A stretch of DNA of 64,000 nt. It comes from an uncultured Candidatus Saccharibacteria bacterium. Lineage in GTDB: Bacteria > Patescibacteriota > Saccharimonadia > Saccharimonadales > JACDBH01. Shown piece by piece: positions 3,724-60,639 of the stretch. Under the pieces are notes generated by a model that made no database searches, was not told the DNA's origin, and worked only from the letters and a program-made list of their open reading frames with translations. Every line of letters starts with the position of its first letter. Position 1 is the first letter of the stretch. The translations under genes and the position numbers were made by a program. The DNA lies in contig CAZXOA010000002.1 of assembly GCA_964642275.1 (NCBI GenBank), forward strand, positions 16,019 to 80,018, read 5' to 3'.

Positions 3724-4214
3724 CGGTAGTTTTGGAATTGCAGCGGGAAGTCGAAGTCTTGTTCGCGGAGGAGTTGCATGACGGCTTGCAGGTCGTCCTT
3801 GCTGCTTGAAGTTACGCGGACTTCTTCTCCCTGGATCTGCGGTTTGACCTTAGGAAATTTTTCGCGGATAACAGCGGTGATCTTCTTGGCTTTCTCTTGG
3901 TCCAGGCCCTTTTTGAACGGCACTTCTTTGGTGATTTTGAGATTACTCGTGACAGAGTCTTTGCTGGTATCAAGCAGCTTCTGTGATTGGTTGCGGGCAG
4001 CCAACTTCTTGCGGACAATATCGAGGATAGCATCTACTTGCCAGTCGCCGTTGCCGGTGACCTTCAAGCCCTTTTTGTCGTCCAGCCACTCCACGGCAGC
4101 GGGTGTGCCCTTAAAGTCATAGCGGTTATCAAGCTCGCGCAACGTCTGGTCAAAGACGTTGTTAAGCTCAGCCTTGTCATAATCCGAAACAATATCGAAT
4201 GAAAATGTCGCCAT
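3720..4214 (-). CDS. yajQ: YajQ family nucleotide-binding protein (UPF0234)
   Basis: 164 aa. Full-length match to the YajQ pattern (SFDIVS...DFKG...FQNYR). Confidence 0.9.
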   Translation of the reverse strand: MATFSFDIVSDYDKAELNNVFDQTLRELDNRYDFKGTPAAVEWLDDKKGLKVTGNGDWQVDAILDIVRKKLAARNQSQKLLDTSKDSVTSNLKITKEVPFKKGLDQEKAKKITAVIREKFPKVKPQIQGEEVRVTSSSKDDLQAVMQLLREQDFDFPLQFQNYR

Positions 4215-4216
4215 AT

Positions 4217-4678
4217 TTAGTATATTCTATTCCAAGTCGGTAAGTTACTTGGTTCCACAAACTGGAGCTGGTGAGGGGATGTTTGTGGTACATCAATCTC
4301 TAGTCCGGGACAAACATGAATGTCTACTATAGAAGGCCCGCCGAGCTGATCTATGTCATCGACTATTCTAAACCAGAGCCCTCTGTGCGTGACATTTCTA
4401 ACCGATATTTCAGCTATATGCGCACTCAAAGATTTTATGTTATCAAAAAGAGCTGATCCTATCCCGCCAGCTCCTGTCAGAGAGTAGTCTTCATTTATGC
4501 CTCGACCAACAAAGAAGCTGGCTTTAAGATCTATGCCTCTAGGTGCAGAACCTGCAATGCTTAACAATGCACTTGTAGTAGCACGTATAGTCCTTAGGTC
4601 ATCCTCATTTGGTCCGCCTGGAGCACGTGCGAGTCTGCTTGCTGTGTCGAGAAATTTCTTTTCAAATTGAAGTTGCAT
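4217..4678 (-). CDS. hypothetical protein (153 aa)
   Basis: ORF ends 2 nt upstream of yajQ on the same strand. No recognisable domain. Confidence 0.55.
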   Translation of the reverse strand: MQLQFEKKFLDTASRLARAPGGPNEDDLRTIRATTSALLSIAGSAPRGIDLKASFFVGRGINEDYSLTGAGGIGSALFDNIKSLSAHIAEISVRNVTHRGLWFRIVDDIDQLGGPSIVDIHVCPGLEIDVPQTSPHQLQFVEPSNLPTWNRIY

Positions 4679-7731: not shown

Positions 7732-10280
7732 AGGTAAGTCTGAATTTAGCGCAATATTATTCAAACGTTGATCTGAAGTCTATTCTGCGTGAGGAGCTGT
7801 TGCAGCGTATTGGCGCGCAGCTGGGGGCGGTTGAGGACGTTGTTGACTGGGCGCCGAAGTTTGAGGGCGCAGTGATTGTACGCGTGGTTTCGTGTGAGAA
7901 ACATCCAGATGCCGACAAGCTCAATGTCTGTCGTGTTGACGATGGTGGCCAAAACCAAGCTGTGGAGCGTGGTGAAGATGGTTTGATCCAAGTGGTCTGC
8001 GGTGCACCAAACGTGACCGCAGGCATGTACGCTATCTGGTTAGCGCCGGGTGTGACTGTACCAAATAGCCGCGACACTGATCCTTTTGTGCTGGAGGCGC
8101 GCGAAATCCGCGGTGTGGTAAGCAACGGCATGATGGCCAGCGCGCACGAGCTGGGAATTAGTGACGACCACAGCGGCATTGTAGAAGTTACAGCAGAAGA
8201 TGCGGGCAAAGAGCCGGTGCCAGGCGAACCGCTGACCAACTACTTTGGCTTAGACGACTTTGTTATCGATTGCGAAAACAAGATGTTCACCCACCGCCCG
8301 GACTGCTTTGGCGTGCTGGGTGTGGCGCGCGAACTGGCCGGCATATCCGGCTTGAAATTTGAGAGTCCGGATTGGTATCTTAATCCGCCGCAGTTTGAGT
8401 CAAAGGAAGGATTGCCGCTAGAAATAAAGAACGATGTGTCGGATCTGGTGCCAAGGTTTATGGTTGTAGCGATGAGCGGCATTACCGTCAAACCCAGCCC
8501 GATGTGGCTGCAGGCAACTTTGGCCCGGGTTGGTATCAAACCCATCAACAATGTTGTGGACGCAACAAATTATATTATGCACCTGACAGGCCAGCCTCTG
8601 CACGCTTTTGACTACGACAAAATCAGAGAGCGCTCGGATAAACCAGGTATCTTCCCGCGCCTGAGCAACAAGGGCGAGAAGCTCTTGCTGCTGGGCGGCA
8701 AAGAGCTAGAGCTGACGGGCGAAGAGATTGTTATTAGTACCGACAAACAAGCTGTGGCGTTGGCTGGTGTGATGGGCGGTGCTGACACCGAAGTCGATGA
8801 AAATACCAAGAATATTATTATCGAGTGTGCAACGTTTGATATGTACAGCATTCGTCGTACGAGCATGAGATTCGGGTTATTTACAGATGCGGTTACGCGC
8901 TTTAACAAAGGCCAGAGCCCGCTGCAGAACGATCGGGTGCTATGGTATGCAATGAAGAATATGGTAGAACTGGCTGGCGCGGAACAAGCGTCACAAGTCT
9001 TTGATTTTCAGGCAAGCCTAGATAATGTACGCATATCCGACGAGGGGCGTACTGAGTTGCATGTAAACGTGCCGTTCATCAATGAGCGGCTTGGCTCTAG
9101 CCTGACAGAGGACGAAGTTCTTAAGTTGCTTCAGAACGTAGAGCTTGCTGTCGAGGTTCTGCAGGTTGGAGAACAATATCCCGAAGAAGGACCTAATCAG
9201 TATGAATTGGCTATTTTTGCCCCGTTCTGGCGGATGGATATCGAGATCCCTGAGGATATTGTTGAAGAAGTCGGGCGTTTATATGGCTATGATAAGCTGC
9301 CGGTTGTGCTGCCTAAGCGCACCGCCAAACCGACACCAAAAAACAAGTTATTTGACTTCAAGCAACACCTGCGTTCCCGGCTCAAAGAGGCTGGTGCGAA
9401 TGAAGTCTTGACCTACAGCTTTGTGCACGGCGATTTGATGAAGAGAGTCGGCATCAATGCCCAGGAGCATGCCTATCACCTGCGCAACGCCATCAGTCCG
9501 GACCTACAATACTACCGCACAAGTCTTGTGCCGAGCTTGCTCAGCAAAGTACGCCCCAACATCAAAGCTCAGGCGGGCAGCACCGACAACCAATTTGCAT
9601 TGTTCGAAATCGGCAAAATCCATCACAAAGGCGTTGTCGGCGAGGAAGAGTTGCCGCTGGAGTTCCAAAATATCGCGCTGGTTGTGACTGCTGATGACAA
9701 AACGGCAAAGTCCTACCAAGCGGGCGCGGCATATTATCTGGCCAAAAAATATATTGACTGGATCACAGACGGCCAAGCCGAATACGTACCACTTACATCT
9801 TATGAGCACCCGGTTTATAGCCACTATGAACCAAACAGAAGCGCCGGTGTGATTATTGACGGTGATAAAGTTGGCGTTATTGGTGAGCTGAACGCAAAGG
9901 TAAGACAAGCCCTCAAGCTGCCAGAATTCACCGCCGCCTTTGAGGTGGAGCTTGAGCAGTTGATGTTCAGGCTGAAGCCAAACAGTTACACACCATTACC
10001 CCCGCTACCCGGGACGTCGCAGGACTATACCAAAGAAGTACCCGTCGATACCTCATGGCAGCAGGTGCGTGACGCGTTTGAAAAATCGCTTGCAGAAGTC
10101 GCCGAGGGCTATGTCTATGACATCGAGCCGCGCGATATCTTTGTTCCCGAAGACCAGGGTACCAAACGCATCACCTTCCGCGTCCACTTCAGCCATCCTG
10201 ACAAAACCATGACCACTGACGAAGCGACCAGACTGCTTGCGGCCGCAACCGATAAAATGCACGAACTATTACCAGCGTAA
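7728..10280 (+). CDS. pheT: phenylalanine--tRNA ligase beta subunit
   Basis: 850 aa. tRNA-binding OB domain at the N-terminus, then B3/4, B5 and FDX-ACB-like regions. ATGA overlap with the SDR stop. Confidence 0.95.
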   Translation: MKVSLNLAQYYSNVDLKSILREELLQRIGAQLGAVEDVVDWAPKFEGAVIVRVVSCEKHPDADKLNVCRVDDGGQNQAVERGEDGLIQVVCGAPNVTAGMYAIWLAPGVTVPNSRDTDPFVLEAREIRGVVSNGMMASAHELGISDDHSGIVEVTAEDAGKEPVPGEPLTNYFGLDDFVIDCENKMFTHRPDCFGVLGVARELAGISGLKFESPDWYLNPPQFESKEGLPLEIKNDVSDLVPRFMVVAMSGITVKPSPMWLQATLARVGIKPINNVVDATNYIMHLTGQPLHAFDYDKIRERSDKPGIFPRLSNKGEKLLLLGGKELELTGEEIVISTDKQAVALAGVMGGADTEVDENTKNIIIECATFDMYSIRRTSMRFGLFTDAVTRFNKGQSPLQNDRVLWYAMKNMVELAGAEQASQVFDFQASLDNVRISDEGRTELHVNVPFINERLGSSLTEDEVLKLLQNVELAVEVLQVGEQYPEEGPNQYELAIFAPFWRMDIEIPEDIVEEVGRLYGYDKLPVVLPKRTAKPTPKNKLFDFKQHLRSRLKEAGANEVLTYSFVHGDLMKRVGINAQEHAYHLRNAISPDLQYYRTSLVPSLLSKVRPNIKAQAGSTDNQFALFEIGKIHHKGVVGEEELPLEFQNIALVVTADDKTAKSYQAGAAYYLAKKYIDWITDGQAEYVPLTSYEHPVYSHYEPNRSAGVIIDGDKVGVIGELNAKVRQALKLPEFTAAFEVELEQLMFRLKPNSYTPLPPLPGTSQDYTKEVPVDTSWQQVRDAFEKSLAEVAEGYVYDIEPRDIFVPEDQGTKRITFRVHFSHPDKTMTTDEATRLLAAATDKMHELLPA

Positions 10281-12708: not shown

Positions 12709-12723
12709 GAAGCTGTTTCTACT

Positions 12724-12746
12724 GGGCGGGTTGAGGCCCGCTTTCT
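12724..12746 (+). terminator. intrinsic terminator after maf
   Basis: GCGGG-ttgagg-CCCGC followed by TTTCT. Confidence 0.6.
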
Positions 12747-12793
12747 AAAATCTAACATCTGGAATCTATATTCTAGCCAGACCCTATCTTTTC

Positions 12794-12823
12794 ATTATAT
12801 CATACTACTTATGCTTTTGTCAA
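12794..12823 (-). promoter_or_regulatory. promoter TTGACA-18-TATAAT (copy of the dispersed repeat), antisense to the maf 3' end
   Basis: The minus strand reads AACTTGACAAAAGCATAAGTAGTATGATATAATGAAAAGATAGGGT. Confidence 0.5.
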
Positions 12824-12831
12824 GTTTTTTA

Positions 12832-12860
12832 TTGACTTCATCTGTAAAATGGGCTAAAAT
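12832..12860 (+). promoter_or_regulatory. sigma70-type promoter TTGACT-17-TAAAAT
   Basis: The hexamers and 17-nt spacer were read directly. It points into the gene-free structured region. Confidence 0.55.
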
Positions 12861-12910
12861 GATTCCACTTTGAGATGGAGTGAATACGCTCTCTCAAGGG
12901 GTTATTTAAC

Positions 12911-12925
12911 AAGGTGTAGAAGTAA
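12911..12925. repeat. left copy of a 15-bp perfect inverted repeat (AAGGTGTAGAAGTAA)
   Basis: The reverse complement occurs at 13579-13593. Confidence 0.9.
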
Positions 12926-13578
12926 ATATTTCTCTGAGATGACGAATTTTGCTGGTCAATTTTGGCCGATAGAATTCGTTATCTCAGACTATTGAGATAC
13001 AAGAGTTGAGCCTGAGCTCTTCTGGGTGTGTATGACCATCCAGAAACGTTGCTCGGTTCGCCCACAGCAGCTGCGCATGGATCCGTGTCAAGATCAACAC
13101 GGGGAGTGCGGCTGCTGAGGTCATCGAGGCGACTTGGATCTGCCCCACAAGGCAAATTAAAATGGGAAACCGCTTTAGTGATCTGAGAAGCCTCGTCCAT
13201 GTGCAAGCCGTGCGCTTTCCTCTCGAATGAGAGATGTGCTGCACGCTTGTATGTCTGCCAGAGCAGTCTGAGTACATCGGGGGACGTCCTCAAGTACTGC
13301 TCTGGCAGAAGATTTCTGTTGCCTGGCCACCCGTCCGGGTTGGGCGACAGAAAAGCTCGCGTAAGGCTTGTCCTCCCCCTCTCCACTAGGAGGATGAGTA
13401 CCTGCGCGAGCAGCCCTGGTGGACCGGAGGTCGTGGTTCACCTCCACGTAACCTGACCTCCGGTCCCGGGGCACTGAATTGATCGCGCAAGTGATTGATT
13501 TGTCCTAAAAGGCGAAAGAAAGGTTCTCATGGTTGAGATATTGGTCGTAGCTGCATTTTTGCGCTCCCAACACTCCCG

Positions 13579-13593
13579 TTACTTCTACACCTT
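13579..13593. repeat. right copy of the 15-bp perfect inverted repeat (TTACTTCTACACCTT)
   Basis: Reverse complement of 12911-12925. Confidence 0.9.
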
Positions 13594-13642
13594 TTCACAC
13601 CTTATCCGAATGCATAACCGCGGTTGTGGCTTCAGACAATGT

Positions 13643-13671
13643 GTGACAGACAATCTATGCCCGCGTATACT
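13643..13671 (+). promoter_or_regulatory. promoter GTGACA-17-TATACT, 8 nt before the ABC exporter ATG (leaderless-type)
   Basis: Hexamers and spacing read directly. Confidence 0.55.
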
Positions 13672-16068: not shown

Positions 16069-16647
16069 ATGGAATTTATGCGTCGTTTTGGGACGCTCGC
16101 GCTGGCTGGATTGTTCATTCTGACCTCGGTCGCGTTTACCGCAGTATTGCTCTGGAGTTCTCGCAATGAGAGCAATAACAGCGACCTGACGCTCGAGCAG
16201 CAACAGATGATTCAGGAGCAGCTCAATCAAGCAAATAATCAAGACACAGGAGAAAACATGGCACGACTAGAAGGAACATTACTCGCTGGCTTTACCCCGA
16301 TTACCACACCGGTCACAGACTTGCAGGTCATAGATATTGTTGAGGGTACAGGCGCAGTGGTGCCAGAGGGTGCAACAATTACGGCGCACTACACGGGCGC
16401 GTATGTGGTCAACGGGCAGATTTTTCAGAGCTCAAAGGACATGGGTCAGCCATACCAGTTCAGCCTAAACGGCGTGATTGCCGGCTGGACGCAGGGTGTT
16501 CCCGGTATGAAGGTCGGCGGCCAGCGCCGGCTGATTATTCCTGGCAATCTTGCCTACGGTGAGGCGCCAGAAGGCTATGTACCAGGCAGCGGCGGCAGCC
16601 CAATGGGCCCGCTGGTTTTTGACATCGAACTCGTTTCTATCGACTAA
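16069..16647 (+). CDS. FKBP-type peptidyl-prolyl cis-trans isomerase, membrane-anchored
   Basis: N-terminal TM helix, then an FKBP core (VIAGWTQGVPGMKVGGQRRLIIPGNLAYG). GGAGG Shine-Dalgarno. Confidence 0.9.
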   Translation: MEFMRRFGTLALAGLFILTSVAFTAVLLWSSRNESNNSDLTLEQQQMIQEQLNQANNQDTGENMARLEGTLLAGFTPITTPVTDLQVIDIVEGTGAVVPEGATITAHYTGAYVVNGQIFQSSKDMGQPYQFSLNGVIAGWTQGVPGMKVGGQRRLIIPGNLAYGEAPEGYVPGSGGSPMGPLVFDIELVSID

Positions 16648-16685
16648 CAGGGGTGGTTAGTGCTAAAACCACAACATATGGTGTC

Positions 16686-22615: not shown

Positions 22616-22713
22616 CCCTATAATTTGACCGATGAGGGAGAATTATATGCCGAACCAGAGTTACTCCATCTATAAAAGTCAGAGAGTAACGCTGCGTGAA
22701 GCTATATCTTCAC

Positions 22714-22732
22714 ATTATATCACACTTGTCAA
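22714..22732 (-). promoter_or_regulatory. dispersed repeat copy: ACTTGACA-N7-TATAAT with TGaTATAAT extended -10
   Basis: The minus strand reads TACTTGACAAGTGTGATATAATGTGAAGATATAGCT. Confidence 0.45.
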
Positions 22733-22797
22733 GTAAAGTAAAGCTTCAGGCCATGAACACCTCTGTTATTTTTAAGGACATGGTGTTCTTGGCTTCT

Positions 22798-22823
22798 CAG
22801 CTAATTTCTTAAGAAATTAGCTG
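22798..22823. repeat. 26-nt perfect palindrome CAGCTAATTTCTTAAGAAATTAGCTG
   Basis: Read directly. Intergenic, upstream of the rpe-like gene. Confidence 0.9.
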
Positions 22824-22912
22824 CCCCACGTAAACGTGGGTGCATATAATTCTCGCTTACCGCTCAAATTATCACTATTTACACCTGTTGATAAACTGTT
22901 TATGCTTGAGGT

Positions 22913-34393: not shown

Positions 34394-34431
34394 ACTATAA
34401 AAAGAGACAAACGTAAGGCAGGGAGATATAC

Positions 34432-34668
34432 ATGGGACCATCATTTCGAAGCGGCAGACGACGGGGACTGATTGCAGGAGCAGCGATAGGTTCGAGCCGG
34501 GCAAAGCGCGCGGCTGCAACATCTGCCGTACCAGCCCAGCCTGTGCCAACTGCAGATAACAGCCAGAACCAGATTAACCAGCTTAGACAGCTGGGCGAAC
34601 TGCGTGATCAGGGGATTTTGACCGAAGAAGAGTTTGCAGCTAAGAAAAAACAGATCTTAGGGCTATAG
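34432..34668 (+). CDS. SHOCT domain protein
   Basis: C-terminal LRDQGILTEEEFAAKKKQILG is the SHOCT motif. Confidence 0.7.
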   Translation: MGPSFRSGRRRGLIAGAAIGSSRAKRAAATSAVPAQPVPTADNSQNQINQLRQLGELRDQGILTEEEFAAKKKQILGL

Positions 34669-34758
34669 ATATCAGATAACCATAATTCGCTGGCAATGCA
34701 CCTTTGGTGGCTAAATGAGCATGCACCCTACATCGTGAGCGTGCTACCGTATCCTCTC

Positions 34759-34777
34759 ATTATATCACACCTGTCAA
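34759..34777 (-). promoter_or_regulatory. dispersed repeat copy: ACTTGACA-N7-TATAAT with TGaTATAAT extended -10
   Basis: The minus strand reads TACTTGACAGGTGTGATATAATGAGAGGATACGGTA. Confidence 0.45.
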
Positions 34778-34809
34778 GTAAAGTCAAGGTACTCATATGA
34801 TTTTCAAGG

Positions 34810-34818
34810 TGTTACAAT
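34810..34818 (+). promoter_or_regulatory. extended -10 TGtTACAAT 9 nt before the gatC ATG
   Basis: ggTGtTACAATagattccacATG, with no Shine-Dalgarno. Confidence 0.5.
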
Positions 34819-34827
34819 AGATTCCAC

Positions 34828-35121
34828 ATGGCAAAAATGACTGGCGACGATATCTTAAAATTGGCCAAACTAGCCCGGCTGCGGCTGAGCGACAAAGAAG
34901 TCGAGAAGTTCCAGGAAGAGATAGGTGCTATCTTGGGTTACGTCGAGATGCTCGGCGATGTTGACACGAAGGCTCTTAAGCCGACCTATCAGGTGACCGG
35001 GCTGACAAATGTGATGCGGGCGGATGAAGTGAAAGATTACGGCTTGAGCCAGCTGGAGCTTCTTAAGAACGCACCTGCAACTGAGAGGGACTATATCAAA
35101 GTCAAGAGGATGATTGGCTGA
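34828..35121 (+). CDS. gatC: Asp/Glu-tRNA amidotransferase subunit C
   Basis: 97 aa with the GatC pattern (IAKLARLRLSDKEVEKF...). Confidence 0.95.
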   Translation: MAKMTGDDILKLAKLARLRLSDKEVEKFQEEIGAILGYVEMLGDVDTKALKPTYQVTGLTNVMRADEVKDYGLSQLELLKNAPATERDYIKVKRMIG

Positions 35122-36946: not shown

Positions 36947-36959
36947 TGAGCAATTGGCA

Positions 36960-37057
36960 ATTAGCAATGAGCAGAATATTAGCTATTAGCAATGAACGAT
37001 TCATGGCTCATAGCGCATGGCAAATTTTTTGCACATGGCTCATAGCGCATGGCAAAT
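36960..37057. repeat. two pairs of direct repeats in the spacer upstream of gatB
   Basis: ATTAGCAATGA at 36960-36970 and 36985-36995. The 24-nt CATGGCTCATAGCGCATGGCAAAT occurs at 37002-37025 and 37034-37057. Confidence 0.9.
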
Positions 37058-41134: not shown

Positions 41135-41140
41135 TATAAT
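41135..41140 (+). promoter_or_regulatory. -10 box TATAAT 8 nt before the dnaE ATG
   Basis: cctTATAATacatacaaATG. Confidence 0.5.
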
Positions 41141-41148
41141 ACATACAA

Positions 41149-44100
41149 ATGGGGAAACAGGTTCTACAAAACAGTGACTTTGTGCACTTGCACAATCACA
41201 CGCAGTACAGTTTGTTGGACGGGCTCACAAAGATTCCGCAGCTTATTGAGTTTGTCAAAAGTGAGGGCATGCAAGCTGTTGCAATGACAGACCACGGCAC
41301 CCTCTCTGGTGCCATTACTTTCTACAAAAGCGCCAAAGCAGAGGGTGTGAAGCCGCTGATTGGTATCGAAACATATATTGCCAGCCGCAAACACACTGAC
41401 AAAGACCCGCAGAAGGACAAGCAGCGCTATCACCTGATTTTGATTGCCATGAACAACAAGGGGTATGAAAATCTCATGCGCCTGTCTACGATTGCAAATC
41501 TTGACGGCTATTACTATTTCCCGCGGGTAGACCATGATCTGCTTGAGAAATATAACGAAGGCCTGATTGTACTCAGTGCTTGCATGGGGAGCGAGATAGG
41601 CCAAGCGTTCAAGAACGAACAGATTCAGCAAGCAGAAGAGATTGCATCATGGTACAAATCAGTTTTTGGAGATAGATACTACCTGGAAATTCAGGACCAC
41701 GGTCATCCGGATAATCCCTTGCACAATACTGAGCAGGAGGATATTAACGAGAAGATTCTTGCTCTGGGAAAAAAGCTCGATATCCCGGTTGTCGTAACCT
41801 GCGACGCCCACTACCTGAAGCATGAAGACCAAGAGGCGCACGAGACGCTACTGTGTGTTGGTACGGGCGCGTATTTGAGCGATCAGAATAGAATGAGTCT
41901 CAAAGAATTTCCTTTGCATGTCGAAGACGCCGGCAGTATTATCTCGCGCTGGGGTGGAGCGCACCCAGAGGTTGTCACCAATACGAAGGCAATTGCAGAC
42001 AGATGCGATGTCGAGCTGAAACTTGGCGGTATTTTGATACCAAAGTTTCCCGTACCCGAAGCCGACGACGAAAAAAGCTATCTGCACAAATTAGTCTACC
42101 GGGGGCTAGCCTGGAGATATGGAGGCGTCGAAGAGGCAAAAGCGCAGCGCATCACCATGGAGGACGCCAAGAAGAAGCTGTCAAAAGAAGTACTGGACAG
42201 AGTCGCATTCGAACTTGAAGTCATAGACCGTATGGGCTTTAACGGCTATTTCTTGATCGTGCAGGATTTTATTAACTGGGGGAAATCACAGGGAATCGTG
42301 TTTGGTCCGGGCCGTGGGTCGGCGGCAGGATCAATCGTGGCTTATGCCACTCGTATCACTGAGCTTGACCCTATCAAGTACGATCTGCTGTTTGAGAGGT
42401 TTCTGAATCCGGATCGTATCTCTATGCCCGATATCGATATCGATATCCAGGACACGCGCCGCAACGAAGTGATTGAATACTGCGCGCAGAAGTACGGTCG
42501 CGACCAAGTGGCTAATATTGTCACTTTTGGCACGATGGCGGCCCGGGCGGCTGTGCGTGACGTTGCGCGTGTGCTCGAAGTACCGTATGCGGACGCCGAC
42601 CGGATAGCGAAACTCATACCGCAGCCAGTGCAGGGTCGGCATATTCCACTGGCAAAAAGTATTGTCGACGATCCGGACTTCAAGCGCGAGTATGAGACAA
42701 ATGAGGTGGCAAAGCGCGTGATTGATCTCGCAATCAGGCTGGAGGGAACGGTCCGCAGCCACGGCGTACACGCGGCTGGCGTCGTGATTGCGCCTGATGA
42801 TATAGTCAAGTTTATCCCGCTTGAGCGCGCTTCAAAGCAGGTCCTGCTTGCAGATGGTACCAAGCAGGACGTGATAGCCACACAGTATCCGATGGGCCCC
42901 GTAGAAGATTTGGGACTTCTCAAAATGGATTTTTTGGGTCTGTCAAACCTGACGATTATTCGCAATGCACAGCGTATCATCAAGCGTGTATACGGAACGA
43001 CAATCGAGCTTGAAGAAATACCACTTGATGACAAAAAAACCTTTGAGCTCTTTCAGCGCGGTGATACGACTGGCGTGTTCCAGCTTGAGTCTGCCGGCAT
43101 GAAACGCTACCTCAAAGAGCTCAAGCCGACAGTCTTTGACGATATTATTGCCATGGTGGCTTTGTACCGTCCGGGACCGATGCAGTTTATAGACAGCTTT
43201 ATCAAACGTAAGCACGGCGAAGAGAAAATTACCTATTTACACCCCAAAATGGAAAATGCCCTCTCAAGTACGTACGGTGTGCTGGTGTATCAAGAGCAGT
43301 TTATGCAGATCTCCAAAGATCTGGCCGGATTTACCGGCGGCCAGGCCGACACTTTGCGCAAGGCAGTGGGTAAAAAGATCATGGAGATGATGCAGAAGGT
43401 GAAACCTGAGTTTGTCGAGGGTGCTGTCAAGCATTCGAATGCCGACAGAGCGCTGATGGAAAAATTCTGGGACCAGCTGGAAGAGTTTGCGAATTACTGC
43501 TTTAACAAGTCGCACGCCGCCTGCTATGGCCTGATTGCCTACTGGACGGCCTATCTCAAGGCCCACTACCCGGACGCCTTTATGGCGGCACTGATGACCA
43601 GTGATGCCGACGACATAGACCGCCTGGCGATTGAAATTAACGAATGCAAGCACATGGGCATTGAGGTGCTGCCGCCGGATGTGAATGAGTCATACCCGGA
43701 GTTTGCTGTGGTGCCGCACAAACAGCAGATTCGTTTTGGCATGAATGCTGTTAAAAACGTTGGATCAAATGCGGTTGAAGAGCTTCTGCAGGCGCGCGAG
43801 GCCGGTAAGTTCGAAACTCTGGAAGATATCTTTTCGCGCGTAAATGCGCGGGTGTTTAATCGCAAGGCACTCGAGAGTCTTATCCGATCCGGCGCCTTTG
43901 ATCGCTTTGGCGACAGGGGCCAGCTACTGCACAATGTCGATATGATGCTCGCCTTTTCAAATAGATTACAGAAAGAGCGTGCTGCCGGACAGGTCGGCTT
44001 ATTCGGCGATGAATCAAGCGGTTCAGATATGATGCCAAGGATAGTGCTCGAAAACTTTGCCGGCACGTACGACCAGCAAGAGCAGCTCAAATGGGAGCGC

Positions 44101-46580: not shown

Positions 46581-46595
46581 TATAATGGATATAAT
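46581..46595 (+). promoter_or_regulatory. tandem TATAAT boxes directly before the pilB-like ATG
   Basis: gggTATAATggaTATAATATG. Confidence 0.45.
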
Positions 46596-48203
46596 ATGGC
46601 GGACGAAGCACGACGAATTGAAGAACAGAACACGGCCCGAAGGGCCCAGATATTGGGGCTGCCCTACATTGACACGACCCAGCTCCCAAACCGGCAGCTG
46701 TATTTGCAGTTTCTTAGCGTACAGGAGTTGTACGACACGCGGATTATCCCCCTGATCGTGCAGGAGAACAAGGTTACTTTTGGTGTTACAAACACCACTT
46801 CGCAGCAGACTATGCGTGCTGTGCAGCAGCGCTTTGCAGATTACCAGATTACTTTTGCACTGATGTCGGACACAAGCTATAGCGACTACATGAAGTTGTA
46901 CGATCCGCCCAAACAGGTAGTGTACGAAGACATCAGCCTGAGCGACGCCGGAACCGAAGATTTAGTGGCACGTGTGACAGGCATGCTCGAAAAGATCCGT
47001 CCTGATGATACGCTGGCGTATCTGATAGAGCAGGCCCATAATCTCAACGCCAGCGATATTCATATCGAAACCCAGCGTGGGGATGTGCGCTTTCGTTTTC
47101 GTATAGACGGTGTGCTGCATCCTATTGCGACCATTACGCACGATAGATATCGGATCTTGCTTGGCGTCATAGCCAGCGCTGCCAATGTCTCCAGTGCTGA
47201 TCCTGAGGCTCAGCAGGGCCATATCTCACAGGATCTCACTATGGCTGACGGGCGTACGGTACGTGTTAATGTTCGTCTCGAGACCGTCCCGACTGTCAAT
47301 GGCATGGATGTAGTCATGCGCCTGTTCAACATGCAGGAAGAAAATTACAATCTCGACCGGCTTGGTCTCGGCCCCGAGGAGCGCGCAGTCGTAGATGATA
47401 TCATTGCCAAACCAAGCGGCCTGGTGCTGGTGGTGGGCCCGACGGGTTCCGGTAAAACAACCACGCTGTATTCTATGCTCAATTCGCTCAACCGTGAAGA
47501 CCGCAAGATTATCACTATCGAAGATCCGGTCGAATATCAGTTTGCCGGTATCACACAGATTCCGGTTGATACCAATGCAGCTGGCAATGACGGCAGTTTT
47601 GCCAAGAATCTGCGCGCGACGCTGCGTCTTGACCCGGATATCGTGATGGTGGGCGAGATCCGCGATAATGAGACAGCAAAGACAGCCTTGCAGGCCTCAC
47701 TCACCGGGCATTTGGTGCTCAGCACCTTCCATGCCTCGTCTGCGGCTGCCGCACTGACGCGTATGGAAGAGATTATCGGCAGCAACCCGTTGTTTGTGTC
47801 TGCTATCCGCCTGGTTATGGCCCAGCGGCTGGTACGCCGGCTGGACGACGCACTTAAGCAGCAACGCGACCCAACCGAAGCCGAATGGAACCGCATAAAA
47901 TCAGTAGTAGATAGTTTGCCAGCATCTGTAGAAAAGCCCGATATCAATGGCCTGAAGCTATATGATCCAGGCAGCTCGCCGGAGAATCCCTACGGTTTCA
48001 AGGGCCAGATTGCTCTACGCGAGCAATTCCGTATGACCGATTCATTGCGCCAGTTATTCGAAAAGCAGCATGTGTCTATGGTGGCGCAGGATATTGAGAA
48101 GGCTGCCAGCAAGGACGGGATGCTTACTATGGAGCAGAAGGGTATTTTAAAGGTTATTGCGGGCGAGACGACTTTGGAAGAAATATATAGAGTTGTTGGC
48201 TAA
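46596..48203 (+). CDS. GspE/PilB-family secretion or type IV pilus assembly ATPase
   Basis: Walker A GPTGSGKTTT, Asp box, Walker B and His box. No other pilus genes are adjacent. Confidence 0.9.
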   Translation: MADEARRIEEQNTARRAQILGLPYIDTTQLPNRQLYLQFLSVQELYDTRIIPLIVQENKVTFGVTNTTSQQTMRAVQQRFADYQITFALMSDTSYSDYMKLYDPPKQVVYEDISLSDAGTEDLVARVTGMLEKIRPDDTLAYLIEQAHNLNASDIHIETQRGDVRFRFRIDGVLHPIATITHDRYRILLGVIASAANVSSADPEAQQGHISQDLTMADGRTVRVNVRLETVPTVNGMDVVMRLFNMQEENYNLDRLGLGPEERAVVDDIIAKPSGLVLVVGPTGSGKTTTLYSMLNSLNREDRKIITIEDPVEYQFAGITQIPVDTNAAGNDGSFAKNLRATLRLDPDIVMVGEIRDNETAKTALQASLTGHLVLSTFHASSAAAALTRMEEIIGSNPLFVSAIRLVMAQRLVRRLDDALKQQRDPTEAEWNRIKSVVDSLPASVEKPDINGLKLYDPGSSPENPYGFKGQIALREQFRMTDSLRQLFEKQHVSMVAQDIEKAASKDGMLTMEQKGILKVIAGETTLEEIYRVVG

Positions 48204-59908: not shown

Positions 59909-60243
59909 TTTTCTTCCGTTCTTGTAGTCAAGAACCAACCCCTCTGTTACTTTTGATGGCAAAAGTAACCAAAACTACTGGGCCAAAATACCTCGTGACT
60001 CATCTGTATGCCAAAATCACAATGCCTCAGACAACTCCCTTTGGTCGGGCAGACAAGTTTCATAGTAGAGTTGTCTGCCTGAGTCTTCGGCAATAATTGT
60101 AATTATTGGCAACATCTGAATCAGGAGGTATTTTGATGCCCAGACCCGGAAAGCAGAAGCCCTGAATGGGCATTATTTATACACGGCCTATCGGCCGTGA
60201 AATGCGTGAAACAGGGGTGGATGAGCAAAAACGCTTGCAAAAC

Positions 60244-60263
60244 TTGACAATGTGTGGTATAAT
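60244..60263 (+). promoter_or_regulatory. dispersed repeat copy: ACTTGACA-N8-TATAAT with TGgTATAAT extended -10
   Basis: The plus strand reads AACTTGACAATGTGTGGTATAATGAGAGGATAGGGTG. Confidence 0.5.
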
Positions 60264-60313
60264 GAGAGGATAGGGTGTGTTTTTGAGCTAACACCGCTCC
60301 ACCCCCTGTACAT

Positions 60314-60327
60314 TGACAGAGTAGTGT
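60314..60327. repeat. left copy of a 14-bp perfect inverted repeat (TGACAGAGTAGTGT)
   Basis: The reverse complement occurs at 60799-60812. Confidence 0.9.
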
Positions 60328-60414
60328 TATTCCAGATTGACTAAGAGATCATATTTTTGTGGTTTGTTAGTCGATCTGGAAGGTTTCCATGATTTAGACT
60401 CCTCGGGAGGGGAA

Positions 60415-60639
60415 ATGAACTGGATTACTGTCGCAGTGATTATCTGCCTCACATGCGTGGCTGTCGCCACAGACATGTTACAAACTCTCGACCATGGGGG
60501 GTGTTCTGTCAGTCGCAAGGTCAGGAGATGGATTCTCGTCCTTTCACCCCTCTGGGTTGCGTTGGGAATCCTGCTCGTGATCGGTCTCATCTTGGAAAGA
60601 GTCCAAGAGAAAACCACCAGCTTCTTCACCGACCGGTGA
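60415..60639 (+). CDS. small two-TM hypothetical protein (74 aa), embedded in a structured non-coding-looking locus
   Basis: GGGAGGGG Shine-Dalgarno 2 nt upstream of ATG 60415. Two hydrophobic helices flank the loop SRKVRRW. The region also carries shadow ORFs on both strands, so coding status is uncertain. Confidence 0.4.
   Translation: MNWITVAVIICLTCVAVATDMLQTLDHGGCSVSRKVRRWILVLSPLWVALGILLVIGLILERVQEKTTSFFTDR

Follow-up and report, generated by a model that had tools for sequence, protein, structure and literature searches.

Near-identical predicted sigma-A-type promoters in a Saccharibacteria genome, three of them facing the end of the preceding gene

We found that four near-identical repeats in a 64,000-nucleotide stretch of an uncultured Candidatus Saccharibacteria genome (the window) have the complete sequence anatomy of housekeeping-sigma (sigma-70/sigma-A type) promoters, and that readings of them as a mobile repeat or an operator are not supported. 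Our main reading, to which we gave a probability of about 0.6, is that they are genuine strong promoters, that one (copy A) would make an mRNA with a structured leader, and that the other three (copies B, C and D) would make short non-coding transcripts running towards the 3′ end of the preceding gene. The genomes of Saccharibacteria and other Patescibacteria are tiny and encode few recognisable regulators, and to our knowledge very little has been learned of their transcriptional control. Ordinary genes in this clade have extended −10 promoters without a −35 and predicted leaderless mRNAs, and the best promoters lie disproportionately backwards at gene borders, where they have been kept in evolution. 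Such a backward placement suggests either that small or antisense RNAs have escaped annotation or that promoters serve here in a boundary mechanism.

The original prediction described a dispersed promoter-like repeat, and its coordinates and strands were right for all four copies. The pattern ACTTGACA-N(5-25)-TATAATGNRANGATA matched four times in the window, against 0.00 expected from 100 dinucleotide shuffles, and TATAATGNRANGATA with at most one mismatch recovered the same four sites (0.12 expected). All four are among the window's five best-scoring promoter sites, counting both strands. Each has a perfect TATAAT, with both A2 and T6, directly preceded by an extended −10/−16 element (TGTGR in copies A–C, TATGA in copy D), and each has a −35 resembling TTGACA 16–18 bp upstream of the −10. 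From this anatomy we infer that the copies fire; their start sites, transcript lengths and roles are predicted below. Transcription would most likely begin at either A of GATA, which in copy A is likely A60270 or A60272. Coordinates are given in Table 1.

The TTGACA of three copies had been judged too close to TATAAT for a −35/−10 pair. The gap is indeed short (8 nt in A, 7 nt in B and 7 nt in C, compared with 18 nt in D), but this box is not the sole −35, because a weaker canonical hexamer, unnoticed in the original prediction, sits 9–10 bp further upstream. In copies A–C the functional −35 would be this distal hexamer, 17 bp from TATAAT, and the perfect TTGACA, roughly a helical turn closer to the −10, would form a second box. 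Other Saccharibacteria genomes have the same double −35 layout. The distance of 16–17 nt from TTGACA to a downstream AGGATA or AAGATA had been reported correctly, but we dropped the reading of this pair as a second promoter because the hexamers lack the key A2 and/or T6 of a −10. Two further candidates were rejected: a micro-ORF that would use the TTG of TTGACA as its start codon after a Shine–Dalgarno-like AACAGAGGT, whose frame varies with spacer length and whose start codons are not conserved, and a sigma-dependent pause element (a −10-like TAnnnT in TAGGGT), whose last-position T is not conserved.

Table 1. Positions in the window of the four promoter copies, their predicted products and neighbouring elements.
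Feature	Position	Strand	Details
Copy A promoter	60235..60273	+	Score 12/14; distal −35 TTGCAA 60235-60240, TTGACA 60244-60249, TGTG 60253-60256, TATAAT 60258-60263, GAGAG 60264-60268, GATAG 60269-60273
Pattern match, copy A	60242..60272	+	
AACAGGGGT motif	60210..60218	+	Upstream of copy A
Structured leader of copy A	60270..60414	+	145 nt, predicted
Predicted membrane protein ORF	60415..60639	+	74 aa; GGGAGGGG ribosome-binding site 3 nt before ATG
Copy B promoter	34750..34787	−	11/12 plus TG; distal −35 TTGACT 34787-34782, TTGACA 34777-34772, TGTG, TATAAT 34764-34759, GAGAG, GATA 34753-34750
Pattern match, copy B	34750..34779	−	
Putative non-coding transcript of copy B	34669..34752	−	Reaches SHOCT stop codon
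gatC promoter	34810..34818	+	Extended −10 TGTTACAAT, no good −35; ends 9 nt before ATG 34828
Copy C promoter	22705..22742	−	Distal −35 TTTACT 22742-22737, TTGACA 22732-22727, TGTG, TATAAT 22719-22714, GTGAA, GATA 22708-22705
Pattern match, copy C	22705..22734	−	
AACAGGGGT motif	22759..22767	−	Upstream of copy C
Putative non-coding transcript of copy C	22616..22707	−	Fold z = −2.07
Copy D promoter	12785..12823	−	12/12 plus TG; single −35 TTGACA 12823-12818, 18-bp spacer, TATAAT 12799-12794, GAAAA, GATA 12788-12785
Pattern match, copy D	12785..12825	−	
Putative short transcript of copy D	12709..12787	−	Fold z = −1.68
Divergent partner of copy D	12832..12860	+	TTGACT-N17-TAAAAT; promoter of a conserved ~800-nt non-coding region (12868-13660)
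AACAGGGGT motif	16646..16654	+	Upstream of glutaredoxin promoter

Four near-identical 35-bp copies within 64 kb could also be operators bound by a regulatory protein, or could form the core of a repetitive extragenic or miniature mobile element, and both a regulator binding site and a small repeated element had been proposed. The extra TTGACA box and an upstream AACAGRGGT motif fit such a reading; AACAGGGGT had five matches in the window (0.69 expected) and recurs 5′ of the −35 in many Saccharibacteria copies. However, when the four copies were aligned with 100–150 nt of flank on each side, identity was confined to ~37 bp, which leaves the repeated element unsupported, and no terminal inverted repeats or target duplications were seen by eye around them. 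The regulator site is unsupported because, apart from the sigma elements, the copies show neither dyad nor direct-repeat symmetry (inspection gave no palindrome); the conserved columns are the −35, TRTG, −10 and start blocks, each a known sigma-70 contact at canonical spacing. In dozens of other genomes, moreover, genes begin just after this motif. We gave almost no credence to a non-promoter origin.

We scanned 185,579 species genomes with CTTGACA-N(5,22)-TGRTATAATGNNNNGATA. Fifty-one of the 65 matching stretches were titled Saccharibacteria, Nanosyncoccus or Saccharimonadales and two more came from other Patescibacteria; the 10 from other named phyla agreed with our chance estimate (~10). 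Among 59 tabulated copies, which include nine within one orthologous coding region (gpmI) and the window's own four, the four positions left free by the pattern were purines in 54–59, and the three positions after GATA were G in 38, 32 and 34. As read from these sequences, the strong-promoter consensus of Saccharibacteria is AACTTGACA, a 17–18 bp spacer ending in TGTGR, TATAAT, G-RRRR and GATAGGG, which is useful for gene annotation and for emerging genetic tools. At about 23 Saccharibacteria loci a co-oriented ORF lies 2–277 nt downstream of the motif, including two leaderless cases. Genes directly 3′ of it, recognised from their translations, encode TrpRS, HisRS, SecY, MetK, acetate kinase, a PBP and an ABC transporter, and at two loci (L021, L022) it precedes a conserved 68-aa ORF whose ATG starts at the second A of GATA.

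The repeats resemble the promoters of Gram-positive bacteria. Bacillus subtilis sigma-A-type promoters reportedly carry a '−16 region', TRTGnTATAAT, which Voskuil and Chambliss are said to have described in 1998. Like Gram-positive sigma-A promoters, the repeats combine TTGACA, a 17–18 bp spacer and TGTG one base before TATAAT with a purine start ~7–9 nt downstream, and A and G dominate the interval from the −10 to that start. Unlike them, the G-RRRR-GATAGGG block is far more stereotyped, a subclass has two −35 boxes about one helical turn apart, and most full-consensus copies in this clade are not before genes. The caveat originally raised, that the motif might be just the generic housekeeping promoter, held for its presence before many normal genes, but not for its conserved downstream block or its mostly non-genic placement.

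In the literature searched for a promoter consensus or a catalogue of small RNAs in Saccharibacteria, the only relevant study found was Kuo et al. 2025 (PMC12641261). That study sets out a general bacterial promoter grammar that includes the TRTG extended −10, a four-part spacer, an AG-rich −10-to-start stretch in Terrabacteria and a 'start' element, Y(−1)R(+1), with a YRR variant enriched in Terrabacteria. For one Saccharibacterium it has only 188 RNA-seq-inferred starts, the sole start-site set for Saccharibacteria and one of low resolution, and it reports imprecise −10-to-start distances for that organism (PMC12641261). The repeats follow this grammar: their spacer runs through an AT-tract, GC, a second AT-tract and a G-rich end with TRTG (TTGACAAAA-GC-ATAA-GTGTG), purines predominate 3′ of the −10, the T-A step within GATA conforms to Y(−1)R(+1), and TAG conforms to the YRR variant. 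GATAGGG, the double −35 and the orientation bias are not described there (PMC12641261).

Copy A is co-oriented with a small ORF encoding a predicted membrane protein with no Pfam family; none of the other copies has an ORF that it could drive. Its mRNA would comprise this 74-aa reading frame behind a 145-nt leader with a strong predicted fold (minimum free energy −55.2 kcal/mol, z = −5.56), in which the 5′ AUAGGG pairs with CCCUGU, a long hairpin spans ~60330–60381 and the ribosome-binding site lies within a small hairpin. A homologous leader follows the promoter upstream of gatC in one relative (L153).

Copies B, C and D have no gene of their own to express. As originally described, they sit just 3′ of the SHOCT gene, the 21815–22615 gene and maf, respectively, and no minus-strand ORF follows any of them; their distance from the stop codons is 79–92 nt. 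They face the end of the preceding gene, as in related genomes, and are therefore probably starts of short non-coding or antisense RNAs rather than of messenger RNAs; the transcripts probably run into that gene's 3′ end. On its other side, each diverges from the promoter that serves the next transcription unit (gatC for B, rpe for C, the 800-nt non-coding RNA for D).

We counted the orientation of intergenic promoters in the window and eight syntenic loci (~210 kb), using an ORF-based gene map and defining a good −35 as at least 4/6 matches. Extended −10 sites with a good −35 were mostly convergent, facing a gene's 3′ end (14 convergent v 7 co-oriented, n = 21), whereas those without a −35 were mostly co-oriented (8 v 30, n = 38) and mostly 0–35 nt from a start codon. 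The contrast was significant (P = 0.0008, Fisher test) with orthologous sites counted more than once, and P was ~0.04 when they were roughly collapsed to distinct sites. The backward orientation of the copies is not accidental: it is kept at equivalent sites in relatives.

Copy B lies back to back with the gatC promoter. The arrangement of that promoter is repeated in ~24 relatives, and the gatC mRNA would be leaderless or nearly so. A minus-strand promoter lies 64–66 bp upstream of the gatC ATG in five genomes (the window, L151, L149, L153 and L147), and the L151 promoter is identical to copy B over 38 nt. Sequence 3′ of the promoter could not be aligned between the window and relatives, and the gene that it faces varies (SHOCT, DUF378 or Big_13). 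The region of the putative copy B transcript has no ORF of at least 30 aa and folds no better than shuffles (z = +0.59), with only a weak hairpin (CUAAGA...UCUUAG); if unterminated, the transcript would continue antisense into SHOCT and uvrB. In JGI metagenome relatives with 65–78% GatA identity, neither the 250-nt regions upstream of gatC nor pattern scans gave a GATA-type motif. These same relatives have leaderless gatC promoters, often with a divergent minus-strand gene.

In L147 the site B promoter precedes a minus-strand gene of 113 aa, which it drives; in L153 it drives three small ORFs on that strand, and many relatives at greater distance also have minus-strand genes there, so copy B could be an orphaned gene promoter. 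More generally, the backward copies might be functionless relics, left when the minus-strand genes that they served were lost or replaced by plus-strand insertions, and the variable gene content of the uvrB–gatC gap among relatives is consistent with this. However, three genomes with different insertions at site B keep a perfect or near-perfect promoter beside sequence that has diverged beyond alignment. A neutral 38-bp element would not hold 12–14 of 14 consensus matches at such divergence, here gauged by 84–87% GatA identity to the window in four of the five relative genomes. At site C the promoter is orphan and convergent in all five genomes that we examined. We consider relics improbable.

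Site C is the rpiB/rpe boundary, where the window, L154, L155, L156 and L157 all have the minus-strand promoter, facing either a 266-aa gene or RpiB. Its spacing to the downstream gene varies (~96–198 bp), and the region downstream of copy C did not align with the orthologous sites. The copy C transcript would end at, or run into, the 3′ end of the 21815–22615 gene, whose stop codon is overlapped by a hairpin (GUCAG-UUAC-CUGAC). Site D was less conserved: a reverse promoter is present in L155 and absent from L154 and L156 (one of the three relatives covering the site), and the faced gene differs among relatives. The putative copy D transcript contains the maf terminator hairpin GCGGGCCUCAACCCGC, read backwards.

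A gene-specific role, in which each copy would make a cis-antisense RNA that controls how stable the mRNA of the faced gene is or how well it is translated (maf, the 21815–22615 gene or SHOCT), fits the closeness of the predicted starts to the stop codons, with no terminator intervening. At sites B, C and D, however, relatives keep the promoter but differ in the gene that it faces; a promoter that stays while its target changes is hard to reconcile with gene-specific regulation, which we regard as very improbable.

Of the options originally listed, we favour that of outward promoters making small or antisense RNAs: the sigma-A features are complete, the motif drives genes elsewhere, the sites are kept, and at two different loci (in relatives L054 and L151) the promoter leads into homologous RNAs of ~150 nt, 90% identical over 126 nt, with a strong intrinsic terminator. 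Bacterial small RNA genes commonly start at a strong promoter of their own and finish at a convergent gene's terminator, or share it. The backward copies are like such genes in their consensus promoter, lack of an ORF and convergent neighbour, and the L054/L151 RNA adds the terminator. They are unlike them in that, for B–D, we could demonstrate neither a conserved RNA sequence or structure nor a terminator: the putative transcripts of B and C share no conserved sequence with their orthologous sites, and within the window none of the three has a significant fold or a clear terminator. Hairpins after the window copies are weak or borrowed, whereas clear terminators follow the motif in L054, L151, L010, L041, L042 and L060. 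Conserved transcript sequence or structure was found only for the copy A leader and the L054/L151 RNA, and the regions downstream of B, C and D have no homology to either beyond the promoter. Rfam gave no match at the gathering threshold across the window or in four relatives, and a permissive search (E up to 5) of the two longest spacers, which contain copies D and A, gave only sub-threshold chance matches, for example to microRNA families. A tRNA/tmRNA scan of the window found none.

Head-on antisense transcription from a very strong promoter, against the dominant gene direction, should be costly; this speaks for either very short products or a role that is not carried by the RNA. It is possible, if rather unlikely, that the selected function is the loading of RNA polymerase itself. 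A tight promoter facing the end of one gene (Z) would keep transcription of Z from reading through, either by occlusion or because polymerases collide head-on, and/or its divergent negative supercoils would stimulate the next gene (Y), whose leaderless promoter is weak and lacks a −35. The neighbouring gene promoters do lack a −35; the promoter and its distance to the downstream neighbour are kept at gatC; and the transcript is not conserved, with the convergent gene differing at sites B and C. In many relatives only 0–33 nt separate the start points from the stop codon of the convergent gene, too little for a separate RNA gene, and in L010, L041, L042 and L060 a hairpin and T-run follow the motif at once, giving products of ~25–30 nt before a second promoter. 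Against polymerase loading, in known cases an elongating polymerase usually dislodges a promoter-bound one, the spacing at site C is variable, and L054 and L151 encode a defined, conserved small RNA; every step is also one that we infer. Extended to the clade, and held as tentatively, the proposal would make the full-consensus double −35 promoters a repeated genome device rather than expression signals, loading polymerase backwards at the borders of co-directional units, insulating those units and/or boosting adjacent −35-less leaderless promoters, with short, fast-evolving transcripts as by-products.

Promoters coupled by interference or supercoiling include pR/pL of coliphage 186, with its 'sitting duck' interference, and the divergently activated leu-500 and ilvY/ilvC. 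As in those cases, a strong promoter here faces an incoming unit, back to back with a weaker one. Unlike those single switches, it would be a repeated device, conserved genome-wide. Bidirectional promoters arising from −10 symmetry, with overlapping −10 elements and starts ~18 bp apart, were reportedly described by Warman et al. in 2021. The Saccharibacteria pairs share with them divergent transcription from one intergenic region, but we rejected a symmetry-type bidirectional promoter: the opposing −10 boxes do not overlap, lying 48 bp apart for copy B and gatC and 55 bp apart for copy D and the non-coding RNA, and each promoter has its own elements.

A search of the window with ACTTGACA-N(5,25)-TATAATGNRANGATA returned exactly four matches (copies A-D; see table) and none across 100 dinucleotide-preserving shuffles, bearing out the four-copy repeat of the original prediction. 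The 15-nt downstream block alone, with at most one mismatch, found the same four sites in the window against 0.12 expected. In character the window is ordinary bacterial chromosome, ~50% G+C, with pheT, maf, an ABC exporter, trxB, gap, rpiB, rpe, tkt, fba, uvrB, a SHOCT-domain gene, gatCAB, dnaE and radA among its genes, most of which are on the + strand; it gave no tRNA in a tRNA scan and no Rfam family at the gathering threshold. Copies B-D, the three on the minus strand, are found 79-92 nt downstream of where the SHOCT gene, the 21815-22615 gene and maf, respectively, have their stop codons, and the window ORF map has no minus-strand ORF downstream of them, both as predicted. The suggested alignment of the regions beyond the copies, run with 100-150 nt added at either end, confined their similarity to ~37 bp; there is therefore no longer repeat.

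All four copies have a perfect TATAAT, directly preceded by TGTGR (TATGA in copy D), an extended -10 of the TRTG or '-16' type. In copy D, TTGACA stands at 18-bp spacing and the score is 12/12. In copies A-C a perfect TTGACA lies only 7-8 bp from TATAAT, this and the related spacings being correct as first given, and a second hexamer occupies the canonical 17 bp, the two -35-like boxes being 9-10 bp apart, start to start. The proposed pairing of TTGACA with AGGATA or AAGATA 16-17 bp downstream fails, because a -10 hexamer needs A at position 2 and T at position 6 and these lack one or both. An unbiased score (-35 + TG + -10, maximum 14) over both strands of the window reached at least 12 at only five sites, copies A-D and the promoter of the 56388 gene. 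We consider it very probable that the four copies are promoters. Their anatomy speaks against an operator or mobile element, which we regard as highly improbable, and, with similarity limited to ~37 bp, it tells against the regulator-site and small-repeat options of the original prediction; the prediction is partly supported, in its option of promoters for small or antisense RNAs, with the -35 of copies A-C placed at 17 bp. Our preferred reading (probability about 0.6) is that these are sigma-A promoters, of which copy A would make an mRNA and copies B-D would initiate short non-coding transcripts directed at the end of the preceding gene.

Coordinates of promoter copies and associated features (L-numbers, stretches or loci from other genomes; L147, L149, L151 and L153-L157, syntenic close relatives)
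Feature	Window	Other loci	Remark
Copy A, pattern match	60242-60272 (+)		17-bp hexamer TTGCAA, 60235-60240
Copy B, pattern match	34750-34779 (-)		17-bp hexamer TTGACT, 34787-34782
Copy C, pattern match	22705-22734 (-)		17-bp hexamer TTTACT, 22742-22737
Copy D, pattern match	12785-12825 (-)		
Site B		L151 (-)	identical to copy B over 38 nt; faces Big_13 gene end
Site B		L149 (-)	TTGACT-N17-TATAAT-GAGTAGATAGGG; start 9 nt from DUF378 stop
Site B		L153 (-)	double -35 version; drives three small minus-strand ORFs
Site B		L147 (-)	extended -10 promoter; drives 113-aa minus-strand gene
-35-less near-start promoters	34810-34830, 46581-46598, 41135-41151	many relatives	
AACAGRGGT	60210-60218 (+), 22759-22767 (-), 16646-16654 (+)	L003, L023, L037, L042, L044, L045, L054, L057 and others	
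GCATAAG(C)/GCTTATG	e.g. 12806-12813; upstream of 27289, 28412, 29501, 20233, 22913	many loci	12806-12813 in copy D spacer
gpmI-internal motif		L002, L004, L008, L016, L023, L025, L029, L032, L044	
TATAAT-G-TAnAAT-AAGAAGAAT		L155:7401 (-), 20488 (+); L156:14213 (-), 20451 (+)	
Repeats upstream of gatB	~36950-37048 (+)		CATGGCTCATAGCGC (x2), TTAGCAATGA (x2)
uvrB-gatC interval	34394-34827	gaps in L147, L149, L151, L153	
Palindrome CAGCTAATTTCTTAAGAAATTAGCTG and hairpin CCCACGTTTACGTGGG	22798-22823 and 22825-22840	L156	partly conserved in L156
Promoter-leader-membrane protein cassette	60270-60639 (+)	L153:6133-6486 (-)	upstream of radA; gatC-upstream site in L153
Predicted ~150-nt RNA		L054:~4100-4270 (-); L151:~9390-9551 (-)	after same double -35 promoter; different loci
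Non-coding region	12868-13660 (+)	L154:5327-6398; L156:5880-6638; L155:7371-8255; L157:1-776	promoter 12832-12860; others syntenic gaps

Two further motifs recur. AACAGRGGT stands co-oriented 10-25 nt upstream of the -35 in many consensus promoters (five window matches against 0.69 expected); it is Shine-Dalgarno-like, yet has no consistent start codon after it. Promoter spacers and short 5' leaders, both in the window and elsewhere in Saccharibacteria, repeatedly contain GCATAAG(C) or its complement GCTTATG, which may be a spacer preference or a global-regulator site.

A scan of 185,579 species-representative genomes with CTTGACA-N(5,22)-TGRTATAATGNNNNGATA gave 65 stretches, 51 of them titled Saccharibacteria, Nanosyncoccus or Saccharimonadales, nine Saccharibacteria matches being one orthologous gpmI coding site (LDK...VWYNEEIG) that should count once. 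Two came from other Patescibacteria, two were unnamed 'bacterium' records (one, L013, near-identical to a Saccharibacteria match), and the ten from unrelated phyla were about the chance number estimated from pattern information content alone. The four N's, free in the pattern, were purines in 54-59 of the 59 Saccharibacteria copies, and G followed GATA at the next three positions in 38, 32 and 34 of the 59. AA preceded CTTGACA in these matches, and the spacer ran in the order A-tract, GC, AT, GTGTG. Kuo et al. 2025 (PMC12641261) describe a general grammar in which the extended element is TRTG, the spacer has four parts, the discriminator is AG-rich in Terrabacteria and the 'start' element is Y(-1)R(+1); the paper had only 188 RNA-seq-inferred starts for one Saccharibacterium, which it notes to be imprecise. 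The Saccharibacteria layout agrees with this grammar, the T-A step of GATA corresponding to Y(-1)R(+1). In the literature searched, GATAGGG, the double -35 and the orientation bias were nowhere described; the interest lies in a consensus specific to the lineage, in the double -35 layout and in a backward placement that is conserved. The gpmI motif, complete and in frame within the coding sequence of Nanosyncoccus-type genomes (...LDK...VWYNEEIGP...), represents an internal promoter or else a coincidence of coding that nine species have inherited. L155 and L156 have a different but equally stereotyped post--10 block, in effect a second -10-like hexamer in tandem with a purine run after it.

The original prediction had left room for a generic housekeeping promoter. 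The motif does precede co-oriented ORFs at ~23 Saccharibacteria loci, with starts 2-277 nt downstream, but its downstream block is conserved and many copies point backward. ORFs recognised from their translations were TrpRS, HisRS, SecY, MetK, acetate kinase, a class A PBP, an ABC exporter, lysozyme and others. In L021 and L022 the ATG of a conserved 68-aa ORF is formed by the second A of GATA; this puts the start at GATA, and the implied mRNA is leaderless. In about half of all copies a hairpin begins 0-5 nt from the predicted start, its 5' arm often AUAGGG; in copy A this pairs with CCCUGU, and the pairing is kept in the homologous L153 leader. 5'-terminal stems are known to stabilise transcripts, and on the simplest reading the post--10 block would be a favourable discriminator and start context plus such a stem.

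Orientation differed between promoter classes when the extended -10 sites of the window and eight syntenic loci (~210 kb) were split by -35 quality. With a -35 of at most 3/6, 30 of 38 intergenic sites were co-oriented with the next gene, mostly 0-35 nt from its start codon, and 8 faced a gene's 3' end; with at least 4/6, 7 of 21 were co-oriented and 14 faced a 3' end (P = 0.0008, Fisher's exact test; ~0.04 with orthologous sites roughly collapsed), figures that are indicative, as they rest on our own ORF-based gene map. For gatC and other ordinary genes the promoter is TGnTAnAAT or TATACT with no -35, and these genes are leaderless or almost leaderless; the gatC promoter, TGTTACAAT, ends 9 nt before the ATG, an arrangement repeated in ~24 relatives. 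The consistent picture is of full-consensus promoters placed mostly backwards at borders of co-directional genes. In most genes an extended -10 lacking a -35 stops 6-11 nt short of the start codon, implying widespread leaderless or near-leaderless mRNAs in the lineage. Two direct repeats lie just upstream of gatB.

In the wider set, at least 12 promoters faced a convergent ORF whose stop codon was 17-63 nt from their -10 box; eight of the ORFs are recognisable genes (MurB, LDH, UvrA, PilB, FtsX, TrmD, MMPL and others). Closer relatives, found via GatA (84-87% identity) and TrxB (80-91% identity), had loci syntenic with the window. At site B, upstream of gatC, the distance from the -10 to the gatC ATG was 64-66 bp in all five genomes (window, L151, L149, L153, L147), and the sequence downstream of the promoter did not align. 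At site C, the rpiB/rpe boundary, a minus-strand promoter was present in 5/5 (window, L154, L155, L156, L157). In the relatives its start is separated from the rpiB stop by 7-33 nt; in the window the distance, 92 nt, is to the stop of an extra 266-aa gene. Site D had a reverse double -35 promoter in L155 and none in L154 or L156. Judged from these comparisons, the backward orientation is a real, conserved feature.

Promoter and geometry relative to the next gene are conserved, and neither the RNA nor the faced gene is. This would suit the main rival, a possible but distinctly less probable reading in which polymerase loading is itself the function, the elements insulating transcription units or activating the adjacent -35-less promoter via divergent supercoiling. 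That they are relic promoters is unlikely; the history of site B supports it, but perfect hexamers are retained beside unalignable flanks and the site C promoter is kept in five genomes. Gene-specific antisense control is more doubtful still, as the identity of the faced gene varies. The stretch from uvrB to gatC is a variation hotspot in gene content: the window carries SHOCT there, and the relatives carry DUF378, Big_13 giant proteins, an MFS transporter or small ORFs. A perfect 26-nt palindrome adjoins a hairpin in the stretch separating copy C from the rpe -10 box, and may be an operator or bidirectional terminator.

The predicted copy A leader is 145 nt long and strongly structured (z = -5.56), is followed by a predicted 74-aa membrane-protein ORF, and is homologous to the unit behind the L153 gatC-upstream promoter. 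This cassette of strong promoter, conserved structured leader with the ribosome-binding site in a hairpin, and small membrane protein is reminiscent in layout of type I toxin mRNAs. Copies B-D, to go by their sequence, can only yield non-coding RNA; their 79-92-nt stretches to the convergent stops fold no better, or just marginally better, than shuffles (z = +0.59, -2.07 and -1.68 for B, C and D), and no clear terminators were found for them in the window. L054 and L151 share the promoter and 126 nt at 90% identity, ending in a strong intrinsic terminator; the L054 unit lies upstream of secY, which has its own promoter, and the L151 unit at site B. An internal GGGGATAATGTAnAAnTAAGAAGAAT stretch of this RNA resembles the promoter core. 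Several other genomes have the order promoter, hairpin and T-run, second promoter, gene, which implies products of just ~25-30 nt.

Back to back with copy D is the promoter of a conserved non-coding region of 0.75-1.07 kb (~800 nt), flanked by the pheT-linked genes (in the window also by maf) on one side and by the ABC exporter on the other. This region may be of greater interest than the promoter copies themselves. It contains no gene calls in any relative, has no Rfam match, and is still present in L155, which lacks the ABC gene. We regard it as a candidate for a new large structured RNA of Saccharibacteria: its minimum free energy over 793 nt is -369.7 kcal/mol (z = -9.95), both its 5' and its 3' end are conserved, and a long-range closing helix, AAGGTGTAGAAGTAA / TTACTTCTACACCTT, covaries (CAGATGTGAAG / CTTCACATCTG in L157).
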